Assembly (NCBI GenBank): GCA_945877575.1
Contig: CAMDUE010000009.1
Coordinates: forward strand, 7,173 to 71,172
Origin: Chitinophaga pinensis
Lineage (GTDB): Bacteria; Bacteroidota; Bacteroidia; NS11-12g; UBA955
Length of the DNA stretch: 64,000 bases
Direction of reading: 5' to 3'
Part shown: positions 23,915-59,095 of the stretch, one piece after another
Numbering within the stretch: the stretch's first letter is position 1
Layout of the letters: each line of letters begins with the position of its first letter
Notes under the pieces: model-generated
What the model saw: the letters and a program-made list of their open reading frames with translations, nothing else
Told to the model about the DNA's origin: nothing
The model's database searches: none
Program-made: the position numbers and the translations under genes

Positions 23915-24943
23915 ATGCCCTATAGCAATGAAATCATAACATTAGAACAGTTTATCGTAGATCAACAAGCATTGTATAAAGATGCTGGTGGATCTTTGAG
24001 TCGGATATTTCGTTCTATCGAACTAGCTGCTAAGGTAGTGAATAGAGATGTAAGAAAGGCAGGCCTTGTTGATATCCTCGGAAACCAAGGAAGCACAAAT
24101 ACACACGGCGAAGATCAAAAGAAGTTAGACGTTATTGCCAATGATCGTTTTATCAATGCGTTATCGAAAAGTGGAGAAGTAAGCGTAGTGATATCTGAAG
24201 AAAATGATGAACCTATTTTTGTGGAGGGATCTGAGGAAGAGAAGTACATTGTGGCTATTGATCCCTTAGATGGAAGTTCAAACATTGATGTAAACGCGAG
24301 TATCGGAACTATTTTTTCTATTTATCGCAGACCTTCTTCGTCAAAAGTTGCCAATGAGAAGGATCTCTATCAAAAGGGTAAGCACCAAGTTGCAGCAGGA
24401 TATGTGATTTATGGCTCTAGCACCATGCTGGTATATACCACAGGGTTGGGCGTTAATGGATTTACCTTAGACGATAGCATCCAAGAGTTTTGCTTATCTC
24501 ATCCAAACATTCAGATTCCTACAGACGGAAAGATATTCAGCGTAAATGAAGGAAATTATTCAGAGTTTCCTCAGGGGGTGAAGAACTACGTTGAATATTG
24601 CAAAAGCAACGATAAAGAAACCCATAGACCCTACGGCGCTCGTTATATTGGAAGTTTGATTGCTGATTTTCACCGAAATCTATTGAAAGGTGGCATTTTC
24701 TTGTATCCTCCTACAGCAAAAACCCCCAATGGTAAGCTAAGATTGATGTACGAATGCAATCCTATGTCGTTTATAATTGAACAAGCCGGTGGGAAATCAT
24801 CTACGGGTACAGCTCGAATTTTAGATGTTGAGCCTACTGATTTGCACCAAAGAGTTCCCATTTTTATTGGGTCAGCGAATATGGTTGATTTGGCGGTAAA
24901 AATGTTCCAAGAAGCCGAAGTAACCATAGCGGAACAGGCTTAA
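23915..24943 (+). CDS. fbp: Fructose-1,6-bisphosphatase class 1
   Basis: [11 protein letters not shown] metal-binding motif and [12 protein letters not shown]. Confidence 0.9.
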
Positions 24944-25572
24944 AATCCTTCAAAAATTTCTAGACTTTTTAATTTTTTGTCTGGGAAAGCATAATATTTT
25001 AACTGATTTAAAACTTCATTCAGTACCAATCTTCTTTGTTCCTGGTTTAGATTGATTGCTTGTTGGTTTTCCAACTCATCAAGCGCGGTGATTATCCAAC
25101 TGGGGGTGTAAAATTGTTGCCAGTCTAATTCATATCCGAGTCCTCGACAAACATTCAATACGAATTGAATAGGCAAATATTTCAATTGACTTTTATTGGC
25201 GGAATTCAGTTTGTCAAACTCATTCAATACCAACTGAAAGAAAATAGCATCTGGAAAATGTTCATGTACACACAGCGAGATCAGTTCAGTGTAAAAGAAT
25301 TTCACTTGCTGAATATCCATGGCATCAGGTACAATGGATGTTTTTAATGCAGATATTTCCTTTATTCTCAATAATCCCGGCGACTGTTTTACGGTATACA
25401 CCAATTCAACAGCAGTGCCTGATTGGTAATAGGCATTTTTGCTTTTGGCTTTTCCCAATCCTTGAACGAGAAAAGCTGCTAGACCTGATAATTCTGTGTA
25501 AATGTGCACCACCGCCGAATGATCGGTGTAGGGAATGCGTTTTATGACAATGCCTTTGGTCTTGACCAACAT
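24940..25572 (-). CDS. recO: DNA repair protein RecO (probable)
   Basis: N-terminal OB fold typical of RecO ([34 protein letters not shown]). The size fits Bacteroidetes RecO. Confidence 0.55.
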
Positions 25573-25590: not shown

Positions 25591-26739
25591 TCAATCTACC
25601 CAGTCTGCAATAAAAAGATTGGTATCACGCGTTCCGCCGTTGTTGCGGTTTGAACTAAAGATCAATTTTTTACCGTCAGGCGAAAACATGGGGAAGGCGT
25701 TGAATATGCTGTTATTGGTGATTTTTTCAAGCCCGGTTCCGTCTAAATTTATCATATACAACTGGAAGTCATAACCTCTGGTTGAATGATGGTTGCTGGA
25801 GAAGATGATTTTTTTGCCGTTAGGGTGAAAAAATGGTGCCCAGTTCGCTTTTCCCAGTTTAGTGATTTGTTTTAAATCGCTTCCATCTAAATTTACTGTG
25901 TAAATTTCCATGTTGGTAGGAGCAACTAGATTTTTAGATAAGTAATCTTTGTATTTTTTAATTTCTTCTTCTGTTTGGGGACGTGAAGCTCTAAAAACCA
26001 ACTTCTTAGAGTCTGGCGAGAAAAATGCTCCGCCGTCATACCCTAAACCGTTGGTTATTTGGCGTTGATTTTTGCCGTCAATATCCATGATCCAAAGTTC
26101 AAGATCACCTGATCTGGTGCTCGTGAAAACAATAGATTTTCCATCAGGAGAAACGGTTGCTTCGGCGTCGTAACCGGTTTGATTGGTCAATTGATTGACG
26201 ATTTTTCCTGTTTTATCTGAAACGAAAATATCAAAATCTCTGTAAATGGGCCAAAGATATGCGCCAGAAGTTTCAGGCGTTGGTGGACATTCCTTGGCAC
26301 CTAAATGCGTGCTTGCGTAAACCAATTGTGAATCACCTGGCATGAAATAAGAACATGTAGTTCTACCAAGGCCTGTGCTAACCATGGCAGGTTTGTAATC
26401 AGCTGAGCCCATTTCTGACAGTTTAGTCCAAAAAATCTGATCGCATTGAAGCCCCCACTTGGCGTTGTTGCTTTGAAAAACGATGGATGAGTTGTCAAAA
26501 CTAAAATATGCTTCCGCATTGTCACCACCGAATGTAAGTTGTTTTAAATTTTTCAGGTGTGGTTCTGGGTGTGTTGCAGGTTCAGTGGCAATGTTTTGTT
26601 TGTATTCCTTAGAAATGCCGTGGCCATGACCTTCATGTCCTTGCTGGGCTTGTTGGGCATTCAAAGTGGTTGCCGCAAAAAAGCTCAAGCCGAAGTATAG
26701 GGTGATTTTTTTCATGTATTTTATTTTAACACTTCCCAA
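25591..26739 (-). CDS. Secreted TolB-like PD40 beta-propeller protein with a His-rich N-terminal segment
   Basis: Repeated PD40 motifs (VSPDGKSIVFTSTRSGDLELW; FFSPDSKKLVFRA; MFSPDGKKLIFSSNR). Signal peptide; the likely start is Met9. A GHEGHGHG stretch follows the signal peptide. Confidence 0.7.
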   Translation of the reverse strand: MGSVKIKYMKKITLYFGLSFFAATTLNAQQAQQGHEGHGHGISKEYKQNIATEPATHPEPHLKNLKQLTFGGDNAEAYFSFDNSSIVFQSNNAKWGLQCDQIFWTKLSEMGSADYKPAMVSTGLGRTTCSYFMPGDSQLVYASTHLGAKECPPTPETSGAYLWPIYRDFDIFVSDKTGKIVNQLTNQTGYDAEATVSPDGKSIVFTSTRSGDLELWIMDIDGKNQRQITNGLGYDGGAFFSPDSKKLVFRASRPQTEEEIKKYKDYLSKNLVAPTNMEIYTVNLDGSDLKQITKLGKANWAPFFHPNGKKIIFSSNHHSTRGYDFQLYMINLDGTGLEKITNNSIFNAFPMFSPDGKKLIFSSNRNNGGTRDTNLFIADWVD

Positions 26740-27779
26740 GCCATTTTAGGGTATCCTTTACGGCCTTGATCGTCATAAAAGTCAATGAATCTCATTTTGA
26801 ACCAGTTGCCAGATTCAGTTTTTAGAAGGAAATATTTGTTTTGAACGATGGTGTACTTTGCTGAGTTTTGATCATAGACTTTCCAATCATAGCCAATTTC
26901 ATTGAGTGTCTTACCCATAGAAAAACTTTGTGCCAATTCTTTGGTCATGTTATCAAACGATATGCCGGAGGTATTTGAATTGATTTCACAAACGGATATT
27001 TTATGTTGGTTGATTAAAGCTCCACGAATGATATAGGGATAAGGTTGTCCGTTTACATCGTGAATGGATTCTTTGTACGTCGTAAAAACTATGTCCCATT
27101 TATTGTTTTTGATGGGTTCGTTTTCAACGGTTTTTAAAGTTCCAAAATTGAAGTACGTGTAATTGTACTCTGGATTGGTGTATATTTTGGTGATGTTTAT
27201 TTTGGATGGATTAAAAACGTAGGTCCATTGAAATTCATACATTCCACCTCTTACAGACAAGAATTTAATTTTAATGAATCTATTAGCAACAATTGAGTCT
27301 GAGCCTAAATCTAAAACGTATGTTTCATTGGGATTGCCTTCATAGCCGTTTGCATTGGGTTGGAAACAGTTGGAAGTTACCAAAGAGTCAATGTGTCCGT
27401 TAGGATTATCAAATCCCCAATTGAGTTTTGACATTTGCAGTGAATGGAGATCATCGAAGTGTGTGTCAGTAACTTTAGCTAATGCGTAGCTGGTGCTTTT
27501 ACCTGCACAAACAATGACGTGTGGTGTTCCATTGCAGGCAAAGCCCAAGTCCCACTGACCAAAAAAGTTGGTGGTTTTGGTTTGCGTTTCGAAGTCAAAA
27601 TACAATTGATTGCTGTAGGTTTCACCCATTTCGAATGTTTGAGTTTGCAGTCCATCAGCGACTTTGGGTTGAGGATACAAGGGTTCGTCTTTTTCGCAGG
27701 AAGTGAAAAACACTGCGAACAAAACCAGAAGAGCGAGGCTGGCTTTTGAAAATAAGTGATTGAAAAATGAAACTAACAA
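26721..27779 (-). CDS. Lipoprotein, HmuY-like domain (paralogue of the T9SS protein at 29847-31130)
   Basis: Lipobox FFTSC. It shares the motifs QWDLGF / KWDIVFTTY with the 427-aa protein (QWDFSW / DWHLNFTRY). The HmuY assignment is inferred from these motifs plus the position beside a TonB-dependent receptor. Confidence 0.45.
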   Translation of the reverse strand: MLVSFFNHLFSKASLALLVLFAVFFTSCEKDEPLYPQPKVADGLQTQTFEMGETYSNQLYFDFETQTKTTNFFGQWDLGFACNGTPHVIVCAGKSTSYALAKVTDTHFDDLHSLQMSKLNWGFDNPNGHIDSLVTSNCFQPNANGYEGNPNETYVLDLGSDSIVANRFIKIKFLSVRGGMYEFQWTYVFNPSKINITKIYTNPEYNYTYFNFGTLKTVENEPIKNNKWDIVFTTYKESIHDVNGQPYPYIIRGALINQHKISVCEINSNTSGISFDNMTKELAQSFSMGKTLNEIGYDWKVYDQNSAKYTIVQNKYFLLKTESGNWFKMRFIDFYDDQGRKGYPKMAWEVLK

Positions 27780-27785
27780 AATGAA

Positions 27786-29819
27786 TTACAAATTTACGGT
27801 AAGCTGAACAAATAAAATCCTACCCATACCAATGTTTACACCCCCATTACTGTTATTGTGAACACCTCCAGTTTGAGCAGTTGCAACTAATTGATTCACA
27901 TTGAAGATGTTTTTTGCACCCCATTGAAATTGAGCTTTGTTGAATAAATTATAGCTAAAACTAAGGTCAGCAAGAGTAAAGGAGGGCAAAGAATATATTT
28001 CACCATTAGAAGTGAACCCTTGCGTTTTGCCTGAGAAACGGCTAAACCAAAGTACATTGGTGTTATAATTTTTAATGGGATATTGAATGTTTAGAGTATG
28101 CTGAAACACTCGCCATTCATTGAGTCCGCCATCAACATTGACTCTTGCATGATTTTGAATGAATGATGAGTTCCATGTGAAGGTAGCATCGTAAATAAAA
28201 AATTCAGATGAGATATTGACACCGCTAGAAGTCATTTCACCAATGTTGATATATTGATACATGGTGGTATTGGGATCTACCAAACTCAATTGAATTTGGT
28301 TATTGATGGAGTTGTAAAAGCTCGAAAGTTTAAATTGAGCTGCAATGTTTTTATTGATGGTGTGACGATAATCAAGGGAGGCAATAAAGTTGTGAGAATT
28401 TTCAGCTTGTAGGTTCTCGTTGCCTTGAACGTTATGATTGATATCTACAAACAAAAAATACATTTCTTTTGCTGTAGGGGCTCTAAATCCTCGAGCATAA
28501 GATGCTCGGAATTGAGTAAATTTCGAAATTTGATATTTGATTTGAAAAGAAGGTATGATGGGAGCGAATTTTAAGTGATTATTGAAGATTGCAGGAGCTA
28601 TTGCAGTACCAAAAGCATTGTTGTAGGCAATTCTTAATGAGGGTTTCAGATTGATTTTTTGGGTAGGTTTGAATTCGAGTGATCCAAATAAGGCCGCATC
28701 CCAGATGGGTTGAAACTTTTGGATTCTCTGTCCGGTGATATCTTCACGTTGAACATCATAACCAGCCATGAAAACAAACTTTTTGAATTTGTTGTTTTCC
28801 CAGAGAGCACGCAGATTCAATAGTGTATTTAAGGTAGTGTCTTGGTCAGAGGGTCTTGTAACCACTTCTGAGCCGGTAACTAAATTGCGACGAACATTGA
28901 TTTTTTCTCGATGATATACATTGAAGGCATTTTGAAAGCGAAAACTGTTGTTTGCATTCATTTTATAGTCAACAATGTAACCAATATCAGCTCGTTGAGT
29001 GTAGAAATAGTTGTTGTAACCAGTTACTCCAATCAAATTGAACTCGGCATTGGAGCGATCTGTTAATTTTTCGTGGAAGTAGTTTAAGTTGATTTTGTGG
29101 GTTGTCTTTTTTGTTTTGTATCCCCAACCCGCATTTCCAAACCATTTGATTTTTGGCTTCCAATCTACCATTCTGTTATCTGCATTGAAGTCAAAGCCCT
29201 CAAAAAACTGTCTTCCAACGTTGATTTCTAACCACTGATTTTTTGTATAGAAGTACTTTATGCCAGCATCTTGATTGATGTTTTTGGCGCCGTCAAAATA
29301 GGCTTTTGCGAAATAAGAATTTCGGTTGTTCAATGGGGTTTTGGTGATGATGTTTATAACACCACCTATAGCATCTGTGCCATACACTACGCTCATAGGA
29401 CCTTCAACTACTTCAATTCGTTCAATACTTTCGGTTGGGATTTGAGAAACATCAATATTTCCATTTAATCGGCCAACCATGGGAATTCCATTAACTAAAA
29501 TTTTAACGTTTTGTCCTCCCAATCCCTGAAGTTTAACAGATGAACCTAAACTTGGGTCGTTTGAAATAATCATGGACGATTGATTGTTTAAAACTTCATT
29601 TAAGTTCTGAGCAGCCATATTTTTGATGGTTTTAGAATTAATGACTTGAACAGAGTATGGGTTGTCAGTTGCTAAGCGAGGATTTACTGAAGCAGTTATA
29701 CTGACGGGGTTGATTAATTCCACTGAAGAGTCAATGGCACTAGATGAACGCAAAGAATTTTGGGAGTGCAATGTGTTTAGCACTCCCAAAATTAAAAATA
29801 TGATTAGCGTTCTTTTCAA
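27786..29819 (-). CDS. TonB-dependent outer-membrane receptor (HmuR/BtuB size class)
   Basis: Signal peptide, TonB-box-like PVSITAS, plug domain (IERIEVVEGPMSVVYGTDAIGGVINIITK) and a 22-strand barrel length. Confidence 0.9.
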   Translation of the reverse strand: MKRTLIIFLILGVLNTLHSQNSLRSSSAIDSSVELINPVSITASVNPRLATDNPYSVQVINSKTIKNMAAQNLNEVLNNQSSMIISNDPSLGSSVKLQGLGGQNVKILVNGIPMVGRLNGNIDVSQIPTESIERIEVVEGPMSVVYGTDAIGGVINIITKTPLNNRNSYFAKAYFDGAKNINQDAGIKYFYTKNQWLEINVGRQFFEGFDFNADNRMVDWKPKIKWFGNAGWGYKTKKTTHKINLNYFHEKLTDRSNAEFNLIGVTGYNNYFYTQRADIGYIVDYKMNANNSFRFQNAFNVYHREKINVRRNLVTGSEVVTRPSDQDTTLNTLLNLRALWENNKFKKFVFMAGYDVQREDITGQRIQKFQPIWDAALFGSLEFKPTQKINLKPSLRIAYNNAFGTAIAPAIFNNHLKFAPIIPSFQIKYQISKFTQFRASYARGFRAPTAKEMYFLFVDINHNVQGNENLQAENSHNFIASLDYRHTINKNIAAQFKLSSFYNSINNQIQLSLVDPNTTMYQYINIGEMTSSGVNISSEFFIYDATFTWNSSFIQNHARVNVDGGLNEWRVFQHTLNIQYPIKNYNTNVLWFSRFSGKTQGFTSNGEIYSLPSFTLADLSFSYNLFNKAQFQWGAKNIFNVNQLVATAQTGGVHNNSNGGVNIGMGRILFVQLTVNL

Positions 29820-29846
29820 GTGATTGATTTAATGCTCAAATGAGAA

Positions 29847-31130
29847 TTAGATCTTTGAAAAAGAGATGGCACTTTTACCTAAATTATGGGTTACTTCCAA
29901 GATGTATTGTCCAGCAGAAAGTGCAGACAAATCAATAGTAGATTGAGTAGAGTTCAACAATAAACGTCCATCGAAACTTCTAACTACAAACTGATTAGGA
30001 GTTACATTTTCTGGAACAATTACATTGAGTTGCTCTGAAGCAGGAACTGGGAATGCAACGATGTTCGCATTGATAGATTTTTTCACGCTTGCTTGTGAAC
30101 CTAATTTCACGCGATCTAAAATGCTGTTTCCGTTAGATGTTCCTCCAAATCCGGTGAAACGAATTCCCCAGTAGTCAGCGCCAGTTGCATTAGGCACTTC
30201 AATAATATAGGCACGATCTGCTACAACTTCGAAAGCTTGTCCGTTGAACGCTTTCCAATCTGAACCCACACGGGTAAGGTCGTTTTTAAATCCTTTTCCG
30301 CCAGTGGTATCTGTATCGGTGATATAAAGTTCAGGTTTCGCCAATAAATCGGCCCACTTTACATTTTCAAGTTTGGCAATCTTCAAACCGCGTTTAGATT
30401 CTACTCCCATGGTTAAGTAAGGAATATAACCTGTACCTGTGAAGGTAGGTACATAGTAGCGGGTGAAATTCAAATGCCAATCGCCTCCGTTAGGTTCAAC
30501 GTTTACTTGAGTCATTTTTTGAAGGTCATAATATTTGTAAGTAGCTCCATTAGCTTCAGATTGTTTCATAGTGTCTGTAACTGGCACAGGACTACCCAAT
30601 GGTGCATATTTGAAAATGAAGTCGCCGTTAGGTTCTTGAGAAATGGGCATGAACTTCACGAAATAGGTATTTGCACCTACAGCGAAAGTTAAAAGATAGA
30701 GGGAATCACCTTTTACTTTGTGAGACCCGGCATCATACACTCCCCAAGAAAAATCCCACTGGTTGTTTGGGTTAAAATTTTGATTGAAGGCGCCTTTTTC
30801 GTGAACGTGTAAATCGTTCATGGGCTTAACCCAAGATTGCCAACCGGCAGTATCCATTTGATCAAATGCCGAATTGTCTCCTTTGGGATATAAATACACA
30901 TTTACCCCAGCGGTGTGATTTAAACGAATACAATTGTCACGAGTGGCAGAAGTGTGCGCCATGTGCCATTTGTTGATGGGTGACGAATGTTTGCTTCCAG
31001 TAACCACGTTAAAGTAGTTGCTGTTCGCATAGCCTGCCCCCATTGACACGGTGTCAGTGATGACTGTTTGAGCTCCCAAGGAACCAAAAAGTGCGCTTAC
31101 TAACAATGCTGAAAAAGTATGTTTAATCAT
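29847..31130 (-). CDS. T9SS-sorted secreted protein with an HmuY-like domain
   Basis: Signal peptide and a C-terminal type A sorting domain (IVAFPVPASEQLNV…SAGQYILEVTHNLGKSAISFSKI). The central domain is homologous to the lipoprotein at 26721-27779. Confidence 0.55.
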   Translation of the reverse strand: MIKHTFSALLVSALFGSLGAQTVITDTVSMGAGYANSNYFNVVTGSKHSSPINKWHMAHTSATRDNCIRLNHTAGVNVYLYPKGDNSAFDQMDTAGWQSWVKPMNDLHVHEKGAFNQNFNPNNQWDFSWGVYDAGSHKVKGDSLYLLTFAVGANTYFVKFMPISQEPNGDFIFKYAPLGSPVPVTDTMKQSEANGATYKYYDLQKMTQVNVEPNGGDWHLNFTRYYVPTFTGTGYIPYLTMGVESKRGLKIAKLENVKWADLLAKPELYITDTDTTGGKGFKNDLTRVGSDWKAFNGQAFEVVADRAYIIEVPNATGADYWGIRFTGFGGTSNGNSILDRVKLGSQASVKKSINANIVAFPVPASEQLNVIVPENVTPNQFVVRSFDGRLLLNSTQSTIDLSALSAGQYILEVTHNLGKSAISFSKI

Positions 31131-31180
31131 AGAGTTTTTAATCTGTTACAAAGGTAACTCCAACCCATTGCCTCCAATTT

Positions 31181-31227
31181 ATGACATTCGTCATCTTCAT
31201 GTCATCTAACGTCAATTTAATGTCACG
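31181..31227. promoter_or_regulatory. Operator-like array: palindrome ATGACATTCGTCAT followed by GTCAT/GTCAA/GTCAC half-sites at 10-11 bp spacing, 50-90 bp upstream of the hsp70 start
   Basis: Seen in the sequence. Helical phasing is the usual signature of a protein binding one DNA face. Confidence 0.35.
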
Positions 31228-31273
31228 AAGTAGTTGGGTAGAGTTTTGCGGATTGCGTTGTAATTTCGCGGAC

Positions 31274-33193
31274 ATGGCAAAGATTGGAATTAATATCAAA
31301 CAGGGCAAAATTGAATTGCCCAAGGTGATAGTGGGTATAGATTTGGGAACCACAAATTCTTTGATTGCTTACGTTCCGGATCAAGCAAATTCAGAGAAAG
31401 CTGATGTTGAAAAAGGCAGATCACCCAAAGTTATTCCAGTGAGAGGACAAGGATTGGTGCCATCGGTAGTGTATTTTGATGAGCATGGAACCCCCAGTGT
31501 TGGACATTATGCTAAGAGTAAGATTGCCCAAGAGCCTGAGAGAACCATTTTTAGTGTAAAAAGATTATTGGGAAAAAGTTATAAAGACGTAGCAGATAAA
31601 GCTGATTATGTAAGTTATAAAATCATTGATTCTGATTCAACGTCAGAAGCCATGGTAAAGATAGAAATTGACGGTAAATTTTATAATCCTATAGAATTGT
31701 CGTCTTTGATTCTTAAGGAAATAAAAACTCAGGCAGAAAAGGAGCTTTCGGTACAAATTGAACAGGCTGTCATTACGGTGCCCGCGTATTTCAATGATTC
31801 ACAAAGACAGGCCACGCGAGATGCAGGTAAATTGGCCGGTTTAGATGTTTTAAGAATCATCAATGAGCCCACTGCCGCTAGCATTGCTTACGGTATTGCT
31901 GAGAAAAAATCAGGGAATGTTTTGGTTTATGATTTGGGAGGAGGAACCTTTGATGTGTCTATTTTAACCTTAGAGGAAGGAGTATTTGAAGTGCTTTCTA
32001 CCCATGGAAATACCTATTTGGGTGGAGATGATTTAGACAGGAGTATAGCTGAATTTTGGTTGAAAAAGCATCAGTTAACGTCAAATCAACTTTCAAAAAC
32101 CGAATTGCAGACGCTTCGAATGATTGCAGAAGAGGCCAAAATATACATCTCTCAAGATGATATTTGGGGTCAACCAGAGGCTCAATTTGAGCGAGCGTTT
32201 CAATGCGTAAATAGCAACTTGACTTTGACTTTGAATGTCTCAGAATTGCAAAATGCCGTTGCGCCTCTTATCGCAGAAACGCTTAAGTCTGTCCATAAAG
32301 CCTTATCTGACGCTGAATTAAAGCCTGATCAAATTGATGAAGTGGTATTGGTAGGTGGCAGTACTCGTTACCCAGGTGTGATGCAAGCGTTAATGCCTAT
32401 TTTCCCTCATGTATCCATCAATAATCGCATAAATCCTGACGAAGTAGTGGCTTTGGGAGCCGCTATTGAAGCAGATGTATTGGCCGGAAACAGAAGCGAT
32501 GTGCTATTGTTAGATGTCACCCCGTTGTCTTTGGGTATTGAAACTGCCGGCGGATTGATGGATGTTCTCATCCCCCGAAACAGTAAAATCCCCACAAGAC
32601 TGGCAAGAGAATATACCACATCGGTAGATGGGCAGGTTAATTTGAAGGTTTCTGTGTTCCAGGGAGAGCGAGAGTTGGTCGGTGAAAATCGAAAGTTGGG
32701 CGAATTTGTTTTAAAAGGCATTCCTGCCATGCCTGCGGGACTTCCTAAAATTCAAATTCAGTTTGCCTTGAATCCGGATGGGATTCTTAAAGTTGCAGCA
32801 AAAGAGTTGAGAAGTGGGGTAGAGCAAGAGGTGGAAATTCAACCTACTTATGGGCTTACCGACGGCCAGGTGGAGGAAATGTTGCTTGCTGGATTTCAAA
32901 ATGCTCAATCAGATATTGAGTTGCGCTTGAATCAAGAAACCATCAACGAAGGAAATCAAATGGTATACACGGCTGAACGCTTTATTGAGAAAAACGGTCA
33001 ACATCTTTCGGCAGAGGAAATTGCAGGCAGCAAACAACGAATTGAAGATTTGCGTTGTCTATTGAACGATAAAGCTGATCGAAACTCAATAAACAAACAA
33101 ATTGAGTTGTTGAATGACTACACTCGTCCTTTCGCTGAGCGGGTAATGGATATAGCAATAGGTCAAGCTTTAAAGGGTAAAACATTAGACTAA
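31274..33193 (+). CDS. hscA: Hsp70-family chaperone, HscA-like
   Basis: [14 protein letters not shown] and [37 protein letters not shown]; a substrate-binding domain and helical lid are present. The real start is the ATG at 31274; the upstream ORF-track extension is an artefact. No hscB or isc genes are adjacent. Confidence 0.8.
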
Positions 33194-36421: not shown

Positions 36422-36993
36422 TTTTTTTATTTTTCGGGGGAAGAGCTGACGCTCAAACTCCTACTCAGCCGTTGCCAAATCAACCGAAGGTTGGCGAAAT
36501 CAAGCAAAAAGTAGAACAAAATCGCGATACCATTTTCATTGATTACGACAAAATTGATCCTGTTTTGGTATCGGGATCTTTGGATGCTGAACATCAGAAA
36601 CAGTATCAAATATTGAGGCGAAGGGTTATAAAAACGATGCCTTATGCTAAGATGGCGGCCTATAAAATTCAGGCCATGGAAGATAAATTGGCTACCATAA
36701 AGAATAAGAAAGACCGGAAAAAATACATTAAGCAGTCAGAAAAAGCCATTAAAGCTATGTACACCCAACAGTTAAAGAATTTAACCATTGGTGAGGGTCA
36801 AATTTTGATGAAATTATTGCACCGCGAAACCGGCAAGACTACTTGGGAAATTATGAAAAATTATCGTGGCACTACTGAAGCCTTGTTTTGGCAGGTGTTT
36901 GGCAGCATGTGGGGGCACAACCTAAAGCTAGAGTACGATCCGGTTGTAGACTATCAAATTGAAAATATCATCAAGCGTGAGCGTCTGGAGTGA
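36370..36993 (+). CDS. Secreted hypothetical protein (DUF4294-like)
   Basis: Signal peptide ending …FGGRADA|QTP and a Lys-rich soluble domain. It overlaps lgt by 52 bp in another frame, so the start is uncertain. Confidence 0.45.
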   Translation: MRLIIDSKRIDQAGLSLIFLFFGGRADAQTPTQPLPNQPKVGEIKQKVEQNRDTIFIDYDKIDPVLVSGSLDAEHQKQYQILRRRVIKTMPYAKMAAYKIQAMEDKLATIKNKKDRKKYIKQSEKAIKAMYTQQLKNLTIGEGQILMKLLHRETGKTTWEIMKNYRGTTEALFWQVFGSMWGHNLKLEYDPVVDYQIENIIKRERLE

Positions 36994-37915
36994 TGTTTCT
37001 TTTAAAGAAACTTGCAATTAATATGGGTGCACCAACGAGAGCACATATGGCATTCACTTGAAGTATTCTATCTGGAATTAGGTAATGAGCAATTGAATCG
37101 GCTCCAACACACATGATTGCACCCGTTAACAGGGTTGGAATGATGAGTTTGCGGTGGTTTTCGGTGTTGAACCAGCGTTTAACAATGTGAGGTGAAACCA
37201 ATCCAACAAATCCTATAGGTCCGCAATAAGCAGTGATCCATCCTGCGCCAAGAGCTCCAAAAAGGATGAGCATTTTGCGAAGTTTATTTACTGGAATGCC
37301 TGCTGATTCTGCATAAATATCGCCCAACAGATAGTTATTCAACTGGTGAGAGTGAATGGCTGTAAATGCAGTCAGCAGTGATACTGGAATCAGCATCGAA
37401 TAAAGGTCAGTTTTTAGAATTCTTTCAAAACTTCCCATACCCCAAAAGGAAAATTTCTGGAGTTGCTCAGCATTTCCAAATTGCTGGATGATTTCAATGA
37501 TTGCACTGAACACAAAGCCTAAAACCATTCCGGTCAATAAAAGCCTAAGATGGTTGCCAAATCCTTGATTTAAGAAAATTTGCAATAACAGCGCCATCAA
37601 TGCACCCAATATGCTTCCAGTTAAAGGATTTAATCCCAAAGGGAGTGCAGTGGGTGCAAAAATCATCAATGCCATACCTAAGTTGGCTCCAGGTGTTACA
37701 CCCACTAAATAAGGGCCTGCAAGCGGATTTCTGAACAGTGTTTGCATGAGTAATCCAGAAATTGCGAGTCCCATGCCGGCAAGAGCGCTTCCCAAAACAC
37801 GTGGGAATCTGAAGTCCCAAAAAACAATTTGAAAATTATCAGGAGTTAAGTTCCAATGGAGATCAAAAAACAAGAGCAGAAATAACAGGATGAATAGCGC
37901 ACTATTTTTGATCAT
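36971..37915 (-). CDS. ABC importer permease, FecCD/BtuC family (iron-siderophore, heme or B12 type)
   Basis: FecCD signature region (LGSALAGMGLAISGLLMQTLFRNPLAGPYLVGV), about 9 TM helices. Confidence 0.85.
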   Translation of the reverse strand: MIKNSALFILLFLLLFFDLHWNLTPDNFQIVFWDFRFPRVLGSALAGMGLAISGLLMQTLFRNPLAGPYLVGVTPGANLGMALMIFAPTALPLGLNPLTGSILGALMALLLQIFLNQGFGNHLRLLLTGMVLGFVFSAIIEIIQQFGNAEQLQKFSFWGMGSFERILKTDLYSMLIPVSLLTAFTAIHSHQLNNYLLGDIYAESAGIPVNKLRKMLILFGALGAGWITAYCGPIGFVGLVSPHIVKRWFNTENHRKLIIPTLLTGAIMCVGADSIAHYLIPDRILQVNAICALVGAPILIASFFKRNITPDAHA

Positions 37916-39057
37916 GGAGTCAAATTAATTTGGCCGTAAAAATAGGCGTTTTCACCGTTTTGATAAAAGATTCTTTGAAGATCTTGCAGTAAAAGATGGG
38001 GTTGTGCACTTCCAATATCCCAAAAAGGATTCGCGCCTGTTGATTCCATTTTAAGGTCATTTTGCCAAACTTGTGGTTTGCTGTAAAGGATTTCTTTTTT
38101 AATTCGATCATCAGAGATTTCCGAAATGTACTTTATTGAACCTGGGTGCAGTAAAACATTGCAGCGATGAATGTGAGCGAGGGCATTTTCTGTAGAGATT
38201 TGCACAGAATTGTTGCCAGAAAGGTTGGGAGTTATCCAAACTGGATCACCGCCGGCATCGTAAATGAGTTGAGTGAGGTAGTTGTTTTTTTGTGGTACCC
38301 ACCAAATTCCGGAGTATGGCAAGTTGACCATGATTTTTGGCTTTTTAATGGAGCCAGAGTTATTCGTGTTAAACTTTGATACCAGTGAAATGTATTTCGA
38401 TTTTTCTTCTTGAAAAAGGGACGATGCTAAAGAAGATTTATGCAAGAAATACCCAAAAACCTTGATCCATTCGGCCTTAGCCAATGGATGGACTTCGAAA
38501 TGGTTTTGAATGTATACGAGCGTAGTGAATTTACTGACTCTTTGGTCAATTTTGGGCTCTAAAGTGTAAGTAAAAGTGAGATTGGGTTTTAATTGAATGA
38601 GTTTCTCGATGTTTAGGTTTCCGCCTTTTTGAATTTCTGAAGTTTGATTCTTTTGAGGCAGCTCAGCAATGGTATTTTGTGTCCAATGTGCTAGTTGATC
38701 AACGGCAATAACAGCTTTCAAGGAGTGCGATTGATTCAGAAATTGAGAAAAGGCAGAAGTAAGAACGGCTATTTTTGTTTGATCCTTGGATGGCGAAAAG
38801 GAGATATATTCAGGGTGGTTTTGAGGATTTTTACCTTTGTGAAATTTTTGCAGAATGCGTGTCGAGTCAAAATAAATTTCGAGTAGGGTATCGGTTGAGG
38901 TGGTGCCAATTCGAAAGAATTTTGCGTGCGAATTAGTCTGCCAATGAACCATGCTTTCATGGTTTTCTGTGTTTTGGGGACTTTGACCGCCTGAACATCC
39001 GCTGAGAATCAGCAAAATGCCCCAAAAAATAATGACAGAAAATCTGAGGAGCTGCAT
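37912..39057 (-). CDS. ABC importer substrate-binding lipoprotein (BtuF/HmuT-like class III SBP)
   Basis: Lipobox LSGCSG, class III periplasmic-binding-protein fold features, and a 4-bp overlap with the downstream permease gene. Confidence 0.65.
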   Translation of the reverse strand: MQLLRFSVIIFWGILLILSGCSGGQSPQNTENHESMVHWQTNSHAKFFRIGTTSTDTLLEIYFDSTRILQKFHKGKNPQNHPEYISFSPSKDQTKIAVLTSAFSQFLNQSHSLKAVIAVDQLAHWTQNTIAELPQKNQTSEIQKGGNLNIEKLIQLKPNLTFTYTLEPKIDQRVSKFTTLVYIQNHFEVHPLAKAEWIKVFGYFLHKSSLASSLFQEEKSKYISLVSKFNTNNSGSIKKPKIMVNLPYSGIWWVPQKNNYLTQLIYDAGGDPVWITPNLSGNNSVQISTENALAHIHRCNVLLHPGSIKYISEISDDRIKKEILYSKPQVWQNDLKMESTGANPFWDIGSAQPHLLLQDLQRIFYQNGENAYFYGQINLTP

Positions 39058-56611: not shown

Positions 56612-56659
56612 GGCAAAACGGTGACTACATTTTCAAACATATCGCTTAACTTGCAGGGA

Positions 56660-59095
56660 ATGAAGAGACTGATCCTCGGTTTGATCACTGTTTTACTTGC
56701 GAATTTCGTGAGTGCGCAGGTATTGCAGCCGTTGGGTACGGGTTTGCCTGGAAAAGTAGTTGCTTCATACGCAACTGAAAGTGAATTTTTTGCTCTTTAC
56801 GAGGATGTAGAAACAGCACAGCCCAATGATTATACTTTGGCTCGCTGGAACGGAGTTTTTTGGCAGTTATATCCAGGATTGGAAACTCCAGAACCTGTAG
56901 AGGTTACAGAAGGGGTATACAACTTTCATTCAATTGTACTTTATAAAAACACCATTTATGTGGGTGCATACATTGCTAACGCCTCGAAAGACGCAGAGGT
57001 ACCTGTGACGCATTTGTATAAATGGAGCGAGTCTAAACAAAGTTGGGTTCCTGAAATTGGCGTGGTAGATACCCGAAATAACGGTATTGTATTTATGTCG
57101 GTTTTTGATGACAAATTGATGATTGCCGGACAGTTTGAATCTACAGTTGCTGGCAAGAGTATTCAGAATATTGCGGTATTTAATGGTAGTCAGTGGGATT
57201 ACATGGGTACTAGTGACATGGTTCAAGGAGCAAACGGATTGATTCGTGCGTTACAGCCATTGGGCAATAGATTGTACATGGCGGGTAACTTTTCGACCTT
57301 TGCGGGTGGTTCAACTGGAAACATTGCTTATTACACAGCTGCCAATGGTGGTTGGGGTGGAATAGGAAGTCCGTTCACTGGTGAAATTTTGGATATGGCC
57401 ACCTACAATGGCAGTTTGGCTGTTCTAGGTACCCAAACCAATGGTACACAAGAAGTTAGAATATTCAAAGGAACTTGGTCTTCGGCAATAGATTTCACCG
57501 GGTTTTCTACTGCAAACATTAAGAGTATTGCAGGAGCAGGTGACAATTTGGTTTTGGCCGGTGATTTTGTAAAAGACGGCAATGGTTCTTCTTTGTTGGT
57601 GTATGATGGTTCACAACTTTCTTTCACCGGGAATCGGTTAACTGGGCAGTTTAGCCTAGGTCAAAGGGGTAGTGAAGCTTTTGTTTGGGGAGATTTTAAA
57701 GAGTTAAATACAGACCTTAAGTATTTTTCTACCATTGTCTTTGCAACGGGTAATTTATACGGCGATTTATACTTTGATCTTGATGGTGACTGCATCAAAG
57801 ACGGGAACGAAATAGGTATCCCTGAAAGTATTATTAGAGCTATTCGTAAGTCTGATAAGCAGCAGTTTTTTACTGTAACTGATAAAAATGGGCACTTCAC
57901 ATTATCATTGCCTGAAGGTGATTATACTTTAGAACACATGTCTCGAAGACACATGTATAGTATTTGCACCGGAAACTATGCTACACAAGTCAGAAATGGT
58001 AAATATTCATCAGTAAGTTTGGGAGAGTATATGAGTCCAACAACCAAAGATTTGGAAGTGGCTTTAAATCCCATTTATCCTGCAGAATTGAAGGCAGGTG
58101 ATACTGTTCGAGCTTTGTTGGTTATAAAAAATCACGGGGCACAGAAGGTAAATAGTACTATTCATGTGGCCCATGATTTGCCATTGGCCGATTTTGAATC
58201 ATTCCCAGAAGCAGATAACTACGACGGAATTGAAGCAACATACTCATTGTCCAATTTAGAACCCTTTGAAACCCGTTCAATTATATTAAAGTATAAAATT
58301 CCGCATACTGCCACTGCTGAAAGTCGGTTTGGTTTGTATGTGAAAACTGGTTCGTTGTCAGCTCAAAACGATGCCTATCAAAATGATAATTTTGATACTA
58401 CCAAATTGAGTATTGGTAAGCGAGGAAATGGAGCGAATTCAGTTGAAAAAGTGGCTGACATTGGTTCTACAGTTGATTACAGAACCAAAACTTGGCTGTA
58501 CACTGTGAATTTCAGAAATACGGGAAGTTCATTTGTGAAGAAGGCTGTAATGATTGATACATTGTCAACTCAGCTACCCTTGCAAAGGATATTGTTGAAA
58601 TCTTTCTATCCGGTGAAAGCCCATTACAGCATTCAAAAGGGACGTATTTTAGTTGTGACTTTTGATCCTGCTAATTTGAAAACCTACGAGAGCAGTCCAA
58701 CACAATCTACAGGCTGGGTTCAATATCAATTAGATTTTTACGAGCAAATGGGCGTAAAAACTCAGGTTGATAATATTGCATATGTGAATTTTGACTCAAA
58801 ATGGGTAGGGGCATCTGAAAACTGTCAAGTGATGGTTATTGACGGTGCTATGTCTGTTAATAAGAGTCTAAACAAAAATGGTTTGAAGGTATATCCGAAT
58901 CCAGTAAAATCTGCATTGTCTGTTGAATGGTTACAGAGAGAGCTAGGTCAAGAATACCAAATATTGGATATGACCGGCAGAGTGGTATTGGCGGGAACGG
59001 TTGGAGAAGGCATTGTAAACGTAGTAGGATTGAATTCAGGTATTTATTTACTCAATACCCTTTCAAGCAGTACGAGATTCCAAGTATTGAAATAA
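56660..59095 (+). CDS. Large T9SS-sorted multidomain surface protein (N-terminal beta-propeller-like repeats, CnaB/SdrD-B-like domain, DUF11-like repeat, C-terminal sorting domain)
   Basis: Signal peptide MKRLILGLITVLLANFVSAQ (start at Met14 of the ORF-track entry). Repeated …AG(N/Q/D)F… blade motifs, DLDGDCIKDGNE…TVTDKNGHFTLSLPEGDYTLE, and the CTD KVYPNPVKSALSVEW…GIYLLNTLSSSTRFQVLK. Confidence 0.75.
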   Translation: MKRLILGLITVLLANFVSAQVLQPLGTGLPGKVVASYATESEFFALYEDVETAQPNDYTLARWNGVFWQLYPGLETPEPVEVTEGVYNFHSIVLYKNTIYVGAYIANASKDAEVPVTHLYKWSESKQSWVPEIGVVDTRNNGIVFMSVFDDKLMIAGQFESTVAGKSIQNIAVFNGSQWDYMGTSDMVQGANGLIRALQPLGNRLYMAGNFSTFAGGSTGNIAYYTAANGGWGGIGSPFTGEILDMATYNGSLAVLGTQTNGTQEVRIFKGTWSSAIDFTGFSTANIKSIAGAGDNLVLAGDFVKDGNGSSLLVYDGSQLSFTGNRLTGQFSLGQRGSEAFVWGDFKELNTDLKYFSTIVFATGNLYGDLYFDLDGDCIKDGNEIGIPESIIRAIRKSDKQQFFTVTDKNGHFTLSLPEGDYTLEHMSRRHMYSICTGNYATQVRNGKYSSVSLGEYMSPTTKDLEVALNPIYPAELKAGDTVRALLVIKNHGAQKVNSTIHVAHDLPLADFESFPEADNYDGIEATYSLSNLEPFETRSIILKYKIPHTATAESRFGLYVKTGSLSAQNDAYQNDNFDTTKLSIGKRGNGANSVEKVADIGSTVDYRTKTWLYTVNFRNTGSSFVKKAVMIDTLSTQLPLQRILLKSFYPVKAHYSIQKGRILVVTFDPANLKTYESSPTQSTGWVQYQLDFYEQMGVKTQVDNIAYVNFDSKWVGASENCQVMVIDGAMSVNKSLNKNGLKVYPNPVKSALSVEWLQRELGQEYQILDMTGRVVLAGTVGEGIVNVVGLNSGIYLLNTLSSSTRFQVLK

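Follow-up and report, generated by a model that had tools for sequence, protein, structure and literature searches.

A TonB-dependent receptor flanked by two HmuY-like surface proteins: a likely heme-acquisition module in an uncultured Bacteroidota bacterium

The stretch of DNA analysed here, called hereafter the window, is 64 kb long and comes from a free-living uncultured Bacteroidota bacterium. Four co-directional ORFs are present on its minus strand, at positions 25591–31130, with intergenic gaps of 5–27 nt, in agreement with a preliminary description of the region. In the order of transcription, they encode a 427-aa secreted protein (29847..31130), a 677-aa TonB-dependent receptor (27786..29819), a 352-aa lipoprotein (26721..27779) and a 382-aa PD40/TolB-like beta-propeller (25591..26739), so that the receptor gene is bracketed, as had been proposed, by the genes of two HmuY-like proteins. 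The next gene on the same strand, RecO, begins 18 nt past the PD40 gene, so that close spacing is by itself insufficient to delimit the unit. The trio is flanked on one side by genes for PD40, RecO, FBPase and an amino-acid kinase, and on the other by those for an HSP70, an OMP, a radical-SAM protein and Lgt; housekeeping genes account for the remaining large ORFs of the window that were compared to Pfam. Neither HmuS-type nor HmuT/U/V genes were found nearby downstream of the receptor, among the neighbour genes and the Pfam-scanned ORFs, and the same scan of large ORFs revealed no HemS and no heme oxygenase in the window.

The 427-aa protein is composed of a type-I signal peptide, an N-domain (residues ~21–188), a HmuY-like C-domain (residues 197–335) and a T9SS type-A C-terminal domain (CTD, residues 360–427). 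The sorting domain (TIGR04183 / PF18962), together with the N-terminal signal peptide, makes it a T9SS type-A cargo. Its score on the HmuY family PF14064 was 21.1 bits, under the cut-off of 27, and five of 16 relatives matched this family at E<=0.01. The best PDB fold matches of its model were HmuY-family structures; one Foldseek run with this model returned matches to the CTD only. A HA-17 hemagglutinin-like match of the N-domain (E 0.004) was set aside as noise, because this domain aligns with the HmuY-like N-domain of the lipoprotein family.

In the 352-aa protein, the lipobox FFTS-C28 precedes EKDE. Cys28 is shared by the entire family, and the Cys28-EKDE sequence resembles a surface-export signal. 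The two proteins would therefore reach the surface by two different routes, as the preliminary description had it, one with a T9SS CTD and the other with a lipobox. The lipoprotein appears to comprise two HmuY-like domains (N, residues ~40–198; C, residues 206–347). Its PF14064 score was 65.1 bits, versus the gathering cut-off of 27. The N-domain in isolation scored 26.5 bits, over positions 2–79 of PF14064, and the N-domains of orthologues 32.6 and 37.2 bits. The AF2 model had a pLDDT of 88.4, and its top 10 PDB matches in Foldseek all belonged to the HmuY family (10/10). Relatives of the lipoprotein were found in at least 540 genomes, mostly of uncultured freshwater and marine Bacteroidota.

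The receptor consists of a plug (residues 52–154; 86 bits in Pfam) and a barrel (92 bits), and lacks an N-terminal extension of ~70 aa that is present in most orthologues, as judged from N-terminal lengths. Among NCBIfam models, TonB-hemin (TIGR01785) was the best match, with 135.2 bits versus a cut-off of 316.85, closely followed by TonB-B12 with 127.3 bits, also far below cut-off. Heme receptors, but also CirA, XusA and BtuB, are among its best sequence matches in the PDB. Heme receptors have been described to carry FRAP and NxxL motifs, together with a His in loop L7 (PMC9331221). The orthologue alignment revealed a signature of this heme/hemoglobin-receptor type, FRAP-x13-His462-x4-GNENL, at residues 445–470 (28410..28487, minus strand), which reads GFRAPTAKEMYFLFVDINH462NVQGNENL. 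None of the 66 receptor orthologues deviates at its P, H or L, and F, R, A, G and N are kept in 56–65 of them. The receptor thus has both boxes, FRAP and NxxL, and the intervening conserved His that characterise the HemR/HmuR type.

The order T9SS gene, receptor gene, lipoprotein gene was kept in 55 of the 64 related loci that could be assessed, namely those with enough upstream sequence. Loci with only ~30% identity and without common flanking genes are among those that keep it.

The PD40 protein, with four repeats (137.6 bits) and a type-I signal peptide, likely has its true start at the ATG at 26715. Directly after the signal peptide, the translation reads GHEGHGHG (26617..26640, minus strand), a His-rich segment that had been noticed before. 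Comparable His-rich linkers, of varying sequence, are limited to the closer clade (L001, L006–L013, L015, L025, L069); distant orthologues have no such tail and several of them are lipoproteins instead. The preliminary description had taken this protein for an extra metal-binding propeller of the system. It would then be a genuine fourth component, a periplasmic acceptor or chaperone whose His tail binds the heme iron or metal released by the receptor. Consistent with this, its gene has almost no gap to the lipoprotein gene, 27 of the 70 assessable loci have a PD40 orthologue no more than 600 nt downstream, and one is still found within 10 kb downstream in seven of 48 loci without the HscA/RecO flanking synteny. 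His-rich linkers recur where the coupling is tightest, and propellers serving TonB-dependent receptors are known, BtuG and XusB. However, the PD40 family has more than 8000 matches, ~73–77% identical across Bacteroidota, whereas the HmuY-like neighbours drop to ~30%, which is the signature of a housekeeping protein. In three unrelated genomes the PD40 gene was located far from receptor and HmuY genes (in two of them next to an M28-PDZ peptidase gene), in 41 of the 70 loci the downstream 10 kb contain no PD40 gene, and RecO follows the PD40 gene equally closely. Moreover, the sequence of the protein resembles neither BtuG nor XusB, and since the protein has no lipobox it is not a surface cap like them. 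The size of the family, its frequent location elsewhere in the genome and the restriction of the His-rich tail to one clade make a dedicated role doubtful. We therefore regard a fourth component as unlikely; the protein most likely has a conserved housekeeping role in the periplasm and is a neighbour through lineage-specific synteny. This calls for caution, as the His-rich propeller appears embedded in the operon. PD40-repeat blades are shared with TolB of the Tol-Pal system, and TolB proteins were the best PDB sequence matches, but the score on the TolB model TIGR02800 was 123.2 bits versus a cut-off of 343.15, the TolB N-terminal domain was not detected with Pfam or NCBIfam, and no tol/pal genes are adjacent.

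An inner-membrane leg for the system had been suggested in a Peripla_BP_2 lipoprotein (381 aa, 34.9 bits) and a FecCD permease (314 aa, 233.8 bits), encoded without ATPase at 36971..39057 on the minus strand. These proteins belong to the right superfamily, but they are separated from the locus by opposite-strand housekeeping genes and share only 19% and 29% identity with the heme ABC proteins of the related locus L071, so that orthology with this Fluviicola-type heme ABC set was rejected. They are therefore no more than a candidate inner-membrane leg. Homologues of the L071 ABC ATPase and HemS were not found among the window ORFs either, and in this genome the locus itself does not encode the periplasmic and inner-membrane steps.

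As to the ligand, related loci proved informative. In four of them (L057, L071, L074 and L084), genes for Peripla_BP_2, FecCD, an ABC ATPase and HemS-ChuX separate the gene of the T9SS protein from that of the receptor (HemS, 255 bits; ChuX_HutX, 189 bits), and in a fifth (L046) a heme ABC and HemS/ChuX set abuts the trio in convergent orientation. These five, all of Flavobacteriales, are the only ones among 85 loci with such a set. The receptor signature, the conservation of the trio, these heme ABC and HemS/ChuX loci and the lack of a cobalamin riboswitch make heme the best-supported ligand, and the locus probably encodes a HmuY/HmuR-type module for heme acquisition at the outer membrane, as first proposed from the HmuY-like pair. 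The points against such a module are the sub-threshold score of the T9SS protein, the near-equal hemin and B12 scores of the receptor, the lack of conserved heme ligands, the absence of HemS and the low number of loci (5/85) with a heme set. Orphan members of the family, which occur with no receptor in Flavipsychrobacter and Chitinophagaceae (e.g. L073), offered no hint as to function.

Some of these points would fit a trio that imports another ligand, such as a corrinoid, another tetrapyrrole or a metal chelate, in which case the HmuY fold would serve as a generic binder. The receptor scores (127 bits for B12, 135 for hemin), the presence of CirA, XusA and BtuB among its best PDB matches and the unconserved HmuY ligands go in this direction, and the nearest ABC permease of the window scores best on BtuC. 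Against it, Rfam searches matched no cobalamin riboswitch, whether at gathering score in the whole window, at E<=5 over 25–40 kb, or in seven related loci; the core of the FRAP-His-NxxL signature is invariant, and a HemS/ChuX and heme-type ABC set is embedded in orthologous loci. Furthermore, all characterised HmuY-family proteins bind heme, with varied ligands (PMC9331221). A non-heme ligand thus appears improbable, more so than a role for the propeller. Its B12 version, which the preliminary description had put forward with BtuG as a possible relative, was rejected on the basis of the Rfam scans and of PDB sequence searches, in which no locus protein was similar to BtuG. BtuG is a beta-propeller, not a HmuY-like sandwich. 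Overall, the HmuY-like pair and the capture of heme held up from that description, whereas B12/BtuG, the propeller as a component and the SBP/permease leg did not.

BLASTP aligned the two binders collinearly over ~320 residues, with 21% identity and an E value of 5e-6. Comparison of the two family alignments with hhalign gave a probability of 99.8% (E 2.8e-28, 284 columns), and by domain 97.5% for N versus N and 99.3% for C versus C. The family HMMs matched each other's ORF reciprocally, with E values of 1e-24 (lipoprotein HMM against the T9SS protein) and 1e-20, and matched no other ORF of the window. Homology, which had been postulated from three pairs of motifs, therefore extends over the whole length, although only two pairs are in register (YLLTFAV..FVKF/YVLDLG..IKIKF and DWHLNFTRY/KWDIVFTTY). 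The third, QWDFSW/QWDLGF, is not: hhalign placed QWDLGF of the lipoprotein opposite KWHMAH of the T9SS protein. Pairwise alignment and PF14064, the check that had been recommended, thus supported the proposal, with a clear Pfam match for the lipoprotein and, according to the models, an all-beta HmuY fold in both proteins. That they might be unrelated beta-sandwich surface proteins with motifs common by chance or convergence, as the low identity and the misplaced motif pair could suggest, is ruled out for practical purposes by the profile comparisons, overall and by domain, the reciprocal HMM matches and the HmuY structures matched by both models.

From its sequence, each binder looks like a tandem of two HmuY-like domains. 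This is deduced from the Pfam match of the isolated N-domain, and not from hhalign of N- versus C-domain within a family, which gave a probability of 58.6% in the lipoprotein family, over 24 columns, and of 1% in the T9SS family. To our knowledge, all solved HmuY members are single-domain proteins of ~190–215 aa; both proteins of the window differ in being two-domain.

Axial heme ligands are His134/His166 in HmuY and Met140/Met169 in Tfo. Such canonical His/His or Met/Met ligands are not conserved in either family. Family alignments revealed no invariant His or Met anywhere in the lipoprotein, and none in the C-domain of the T9SS protein, whose invariant residues of this type (M30, H59 and H72) are all in the N-domain. 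The HMMER alignment to solved HmuY structures covered the conserved first hairpin and last strands only, not the ligand loops. Since the C-domains have no invariant His or Met, heme ligation would have to differ from that of P. gingivalis HmuY and Tfo. Invariant tyrosines, Y235 and Y249 in the lipoprotein and Y225 and Y238 in the T9SS protein, are candidate ligands on the basis of the alignments.

Consider how such a module might operate. The T9SS protein, once exported, would act as a distal heme scavenger, released or attached to the surface. The lipoprotein would be flipped to the cell surface by its Cys-EKDE export-type signal and, positioned on the receptor or close to it, would be the proximal acceptor of heme. 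Heme would be handed between the two binders, and then pass through the receptor with TonB energy. In its most extended form, this would be a widespread and undescribed two-tier hemophore relay of free-living aquatic Bacteroidota, from a secreted tandem-HmuY protein to a receptor-docked tandem-HmuY lipoprotein, with non-His/non-Met (possibly tyrosine) ligation, some lineages recruiting the periplasmic His-tailed PD40 protein as acceptor at the inner face of the receptor. We propose this complete scheme tentatively, as it is rather doubtful that all of it is correct.

The locus resembles the Hmu system of Porphyromonas gingivalis (HmuY lipoprotein and HmuR, operon hmuYRSTUV) in that a HmuY-fold binder lies beside a FRAP/NxxL/His receptor, a binder is a lipoprotein and the host belongs to the Bacteroidota. 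It differs by the presence of two binders, of about double size and with two HmuY-like domains each, one being a T9SS cargo, by the lack of a conserved His/His pair and by the absence of hmuS/T/U/V nearby. Judging from its description, the Hfp locus of Flavobacterium psychrophilum, an aerobic member of the Bacteroidota, is similarly minimal, with a receptor and a HmuY-like protein but no HmuSTUV (PMC9331221). HfpY and HfpR bind and use heme, and HfpY has diverged strongly from the HmuY proteins of anaerobes, its ligation being thought non-canonical (PMC9331221). However, the Hfp operon contains a single HmuY-like gene, with a DoxX gene in between, whereas two paralogues flank the receptor in the window. 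T9SS-secreted HmuY proteins are already known in Flavobacterium: C6N29_01035 of Flavobacterium columnare, with HmuY_like and Por_Secre_tail domains, is described as T9SS-secreted, and its deletion had no in vitro growth phenotype (PMC9618737). By description it shares with the 427-aa protein the combination of a HmuY-like domain and a T9SS type-A CTD, but the paper mentions no pairing with a lipoprotein paralogue on either side of a receptor (PMC9618737). Finally, in BtuG-BtuB and XusB-XusA of gut Bacteroides, a surface lipoprotein also catches the ligand for a dedicated TonB-dependent receptor, and a propeller gene adjoins the receptor locus. BtuG and XusB are themselves seven-bladed surface propeller lipoproteins, whereas the binders of the window have the HmuY fold, and its PD40 protein, with a type-I signal peptide, is not locus-specific.

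As far as we know, studies of HmuY-type heme capture have been confined almost entirely to host-associated anaerobes (Porphyromonas, Tannerella, Prevotella, Bacteroides) and two fish pathogens. Here the HmuY fold is duplicated and double-domain, in one T9SS cargo and one lipoprotein, which offers a natural system for asking how a secreted binder passes heme to an anchored one. The spread over at least 540 genomes and the order kept in 55/64 loci suggest that heme scavenging is common among environmental Bacteroidota, and, as the known axial ligands are absent, heme binding may follow a different chemistry.

Two elements were observed upstream of the first gene. The Bacteroidota -7 promoter consensus is TAnnTTTG. 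It is matched by TACCTTTG (31149..31156, minus strand), read off the sequence and ending 18 nt before the ATG, which we presume to be a promoter element. Further upstream, 60–95 nt from the gene, are four phased direct repeats TGAC(A) with 10–11 nt spacing (31190..31225, minus strand). The pattern TGAC-N6-7-TGAC-N6-7-TGAC occurs at this single site in the 64 kb, versus an expected number of zero in shuffled sequences. Phased repeats were present at about equal distance upstream of the orthologous gene in closer relatives (L006–L008, L010–L016, L021, L022), compared to 1.5% of background 170-nt windows, and may correspond to an operator for some regulator.

As the preliminary description had it, four open reading frames follow one another in the same direction on the minus strand (25591–31130). 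They encode a 427-aa HmuY-like T9SS cargo (29847–31130), a 677-aa TonB-dependent receptor (27786–29819), a 352-aa HmuY-like lipoprotein (26721–27779) and a PD40 propeller (25591–26739) of 382 aa, or more likely 374 aa with an ATG at 26715. Gaps of 27, 6 and about 5 nt separate the genes. RecO (24940–25572) comes next on the minus strand, 18 nt beyond the PD40 gene, so tight spacing alone is no marker of the limits of a functional unit.

The 427-aa protein has a type-I signal peptide (ending in SLGA, followed by QT) and a type-A T9SS sorting domain (27.1 bits against TIGR04183, cut-off 23), and PF18962 was matched by all 16 of its aligned relatives. In the 352-aa protein the lipobox ends at Cys28, which is followed by EKDE and is invariant across the family. 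The family consensus around this residue, SCEKxE, resembles the surface-export signal of Bacteroidota lipoproteins. The PD40 protein also starts with a type-I signal peptide; immediately behind it comes QQAQQGHEGHGHG, and then four PD40 repeats (137.6 bits). A second T9SS cargo (56621–59095, plus strand; 824 aa, DUF7619 and Por_Secre_tail) is unrelated to the HmuY-like pair apart from its sorting domain.

Judged from their sequences, the T9SS protein and the lipoprotein are homologues, as had been proposed. BLASTP aligned them collinearly over about 320 residues (E 5e-6, 21% identity), and a profile-profile comparison of two family alignments of 16 diverse relatives each gave 99.8% probability (E 2.8e-28, 284 columns), with 97.5% for N-domain to N-domain and 99.3% for C-domain to C-domain. 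Among the window ORFs, the two family HMMs matched each other's protein reciprocally (E 1e-24 and 1e-20) and nothing else, apart from one further match of the T9SS family HMM to another T9SS-CTD protein. Of the three motif pairs cited for this homology, the last two are in register and the first is not: QWDLGF of the lipoprotein aligns with KWHMAH of the T9SS protein instead of QWDFSW.

The suggested comparison with HmuY bore out the family assignment. The lipoprotein scored 65.1 bits against PF14064 (cut-off 27), and the T9SS protein 21.1 bits (E 3.6e-4), under this cut-off; 5 of the 16 relatives of the T9SS protein matched at E≤0.01. AlphaFold2 models built from the family alignments had a mean pLDDT of 88.4 (lipoprotein) and 80.7 (T9SS protein), and the ten best Foldseek matches of the lipoprotein model in the PDB were all HmuY-family structures (PinO, Bvu, Tfo, BF2707, HmuY, BfrB). 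In both binders the PF14064 match falls in the C-terminal half. The lipoprotein N-domain alone matches PF14064 positions 2–79; the window protein scores 26.5 bits there, and two orthologues score 32.6 and 37.2 bits. In the lipoprotein family profile, N-domain and C-domain both align to one and the same part of solved HmuY-family structures, the first hairpin. Direct profile comparison of N-domain and C-domain was weak (58.6% over 24 columns). Both binders are probably tandems of two HmuY-like domains, the N-domain being the more diverged. The family members with solved structures all have a single domain and about 190–215 residues.

Relatives of the lipoprotein are encoded in at least 540 loci, nearly all from uncultured Bacteroidota (scan with one genome per species). 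From these, 85 related loci were fetched; of the 64 among them whose upstream sequence was long enough to judge, 55 have the order T9SS gene, receptor gene, lipoprotein gene. This order holds even at about 30% identity, without any common flanking genes. The window receptor is without the N-terminal extension of about 70 residues seen in most orthologues (about 750–770 aa; compared with L008, L010, L001 and L071), which in L071 has a weak CarboxypepD_reg match. Eight loci (L040, L043, L047, L048, L073, L076, L080, L083), from Flavipsychrobacter and Chitinophagaceae MAGs, have a tandem-HmuY lipoprotein gene with no gene for a T9SS paralogue or orthologous receptor within 10 kb; that of L073 is flanked by a thioredoxin-like gene and rpoN. 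The closest relatives, L006 and L007 (lipoprotein identity 93% and 91%), and several other MAG records bear the names ‘uncultured Rhizobium sp.’, ‘Bifidobacterium sp.’ or ‘Sphingomonadales’. These organism labels look wrong, since the genes present are Bacteroidota-like (T9SS cargo, HmuY trio, same synteny).

The locus likely serves heme uptake, because of the receptor signature, the gene context in relatives, the absence of a B12 riboswitch and experimental precedents. The receptor carries the motif GFRAPTAKEMYFLFVDINH(462)NVQGNENL. The signature described for heme/hemoglobin receptors consists of FRAP and NxxL boxes together with a loop-L7 His (PMC9331221). In all 66 receptor orthologues aligned from the related loci, the FRAP proline, this His and the NxxL leucine are unchanged; the remaining positions are conserved in 56–65 of them. 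In four loci from Crocinitomicaceae, Fluviicola and other Flavobacteriales (L057, L071, L074, L084), the T9SS and receptor genes enclose a complete heme-utilisation set: Peripla_BP_2, FecCD, ABC ATPase, plus HemS (254.8 bits) with ChuX_HutX (189 bits). The same Peripla_BP_2/FecCD/ATPase/HemS-ChuX set adjoins the trio, convergently, in L046. As experimental precedents, two sets of characterised relatives from aerobic Bacteroidota bind heme or use it: HfpY/HfpR of F. psychrophilum and the HmuY_like plus Por_Secre_tail protein of F. columnare.

Some points limit the heme reading or count against it. Family scores of the receptor itself fall far short of both curated cut-offs and hardly separate TonB-hemin (135 bits, cut-off 317) from TonB-B12 (127 bits, cut-off 600), and its sequence matches in the PDB are mixed (CirA, XusA, BtuB, heme receptors). 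Vitamin B12 as the ligand is disfavoured by the Rfam searches: at gathering score the whole window gave neither a cobalamin riboswitch nor a match to any other Rfam family, its 25–40 kb segment gave no match at E≤5, and seven related loci gave no cobalamin riboswitch.

As to how heme would be held, a further limiting point, the lipoprotein family alignment contains no invariant His or Met. In the T9SS family M30, H59 and H72 are invariant, but they all belong to the N-domain, and the HmuY-like C-domain is without any. The His/His ligation of HmuY and the Met/Met ligation of Tfo are thus not conserved. Two Tyr are among the residues that both families keep invariant, Y235 and Y249 of the lipoprotein, equivalent to Y225 and Y238 of the T9SS protein; they are proposed as no more than candidate heme ligands.

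The window system shares a HmuY-fold binder and a heme-type receptor with HmuY/HmuR and HfpY/HfpR, and would work like them. It differs in its two paralogous binders with two export routes, in their double-domain build, in having no conserved His or Met ligands and in having no HmuSTUV genes. A T9SS-secreted HmuY-domain protein is already known, the F. columnare protein with HmuY_like and Por_Secre_tail domains being described as T9SS-secreted, and that element is not new (PMC9618737). In the literature searched, we found no description of a conserved binder pairing around a receptor, nor of the tandem architecture.

A Peripla_BP_2 lipoprotein and a FecCD permease (36971–39057; Pfam 34.9 and 233.8 bits) had been put forward as the inner-membrane leg. 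They are of the right superfamily for this, but nothing ties them specifically to the locus. The binding protein is divergent, with a weak IsdE match (E 9e-5), and the best NCBIfam model for the permease is BtuC (166 bits, cut-off 334). The two are only 19% and 29% identical to the embedded heme binding protein and permease of L071, and no ATPase gene adjoins them. Five genes intervene (HSP70/HscA-like, OMP, radical-SAM protein, Lgt, DUF4294); four lie on the opposite strand, and none has to do with heme uptake. Neither HemS nor a homologue of the L071 ABC ATPase was found among the window ORFs, which also limits the heme reading; the other large ORFs scanned are housekeeping genes.

The propeller had been described as an extra, metal-binding part of the locus. 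Its His-rich segment and PD40 repeats stand, but its dedication to the locus is doubtful: the family is widespread and found apart from the trio. It has more than 8000 database matches, with 66–89% identity, mostly 73–77%, among the matches listed. Downstream sequence was sufficient in 70 loci; the PD40 gene lies beside the trio in 29 of them, no more than 600 nt away in 27, and near it in only 7 of the 48 loci without HscA/RecO flanking synteny. L077 has it on the opposite strand. We conclude that the adjacency mostly reflects lineage-specific synteny. Recruitment into the heme system in the window's clade is unlikely. The His-rich linker occurs in the closer clade in varying form (e.g. HQGHNHGHSHG…HAGHNHG in L015 and L025), and distant orthologues are without it, several having a lipobox instead. 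Across related loci PD40 keeps about 500–600 bits where its HmuY-like neighbours drop to about 130 bits, a conservation that points to a core function in the periplasm. The gene is away from any receptor or HmuY gene in three unrelated genomes. In two of these, L086 (7001–9248) and L087 (7001–9309), the PD40 orthologue, about 74% identical, is directly followed by the gene of a Peptidase_M28 plus PDZ protein, a neighbour hinting that it may help to handle proteins or peptides in the periplasm. The best PDB sequence matches are TolB proteins; TolB identity was rejected (TIGR02800, 123 versus 343 bits; no tol/pal neighbours), and searches of Pfam and NCBIfam found no TolB N-terminal domain. No similarity to BtuG or XusB was found.

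Upstream of the T9SS gene, by 60–95 nt, are four phased TGAC(A) direct repeats spaced 10–11 nt apart (31190–31225, minus strand). The three-repeat TGAC pattern occurs once in the 64-kb window, and none was expected in shuffles; phased TGAC repeats recur at about the same distance in closer relatives, versus 1.5% of background windows. They look like a candidate operator for a direct-repeat-binding regulator and not like a classical Fur box. Next comes a TAccTTTG box that stops 18 nt short of the ATG. The listed start of the divergent HSP70/HscA-like ORF (31181) overlaps this promoter region (31181–31273); its true start is likely the ATG near 31274 (MAKIGINI…), which would make the intergenic region 143 nt long.
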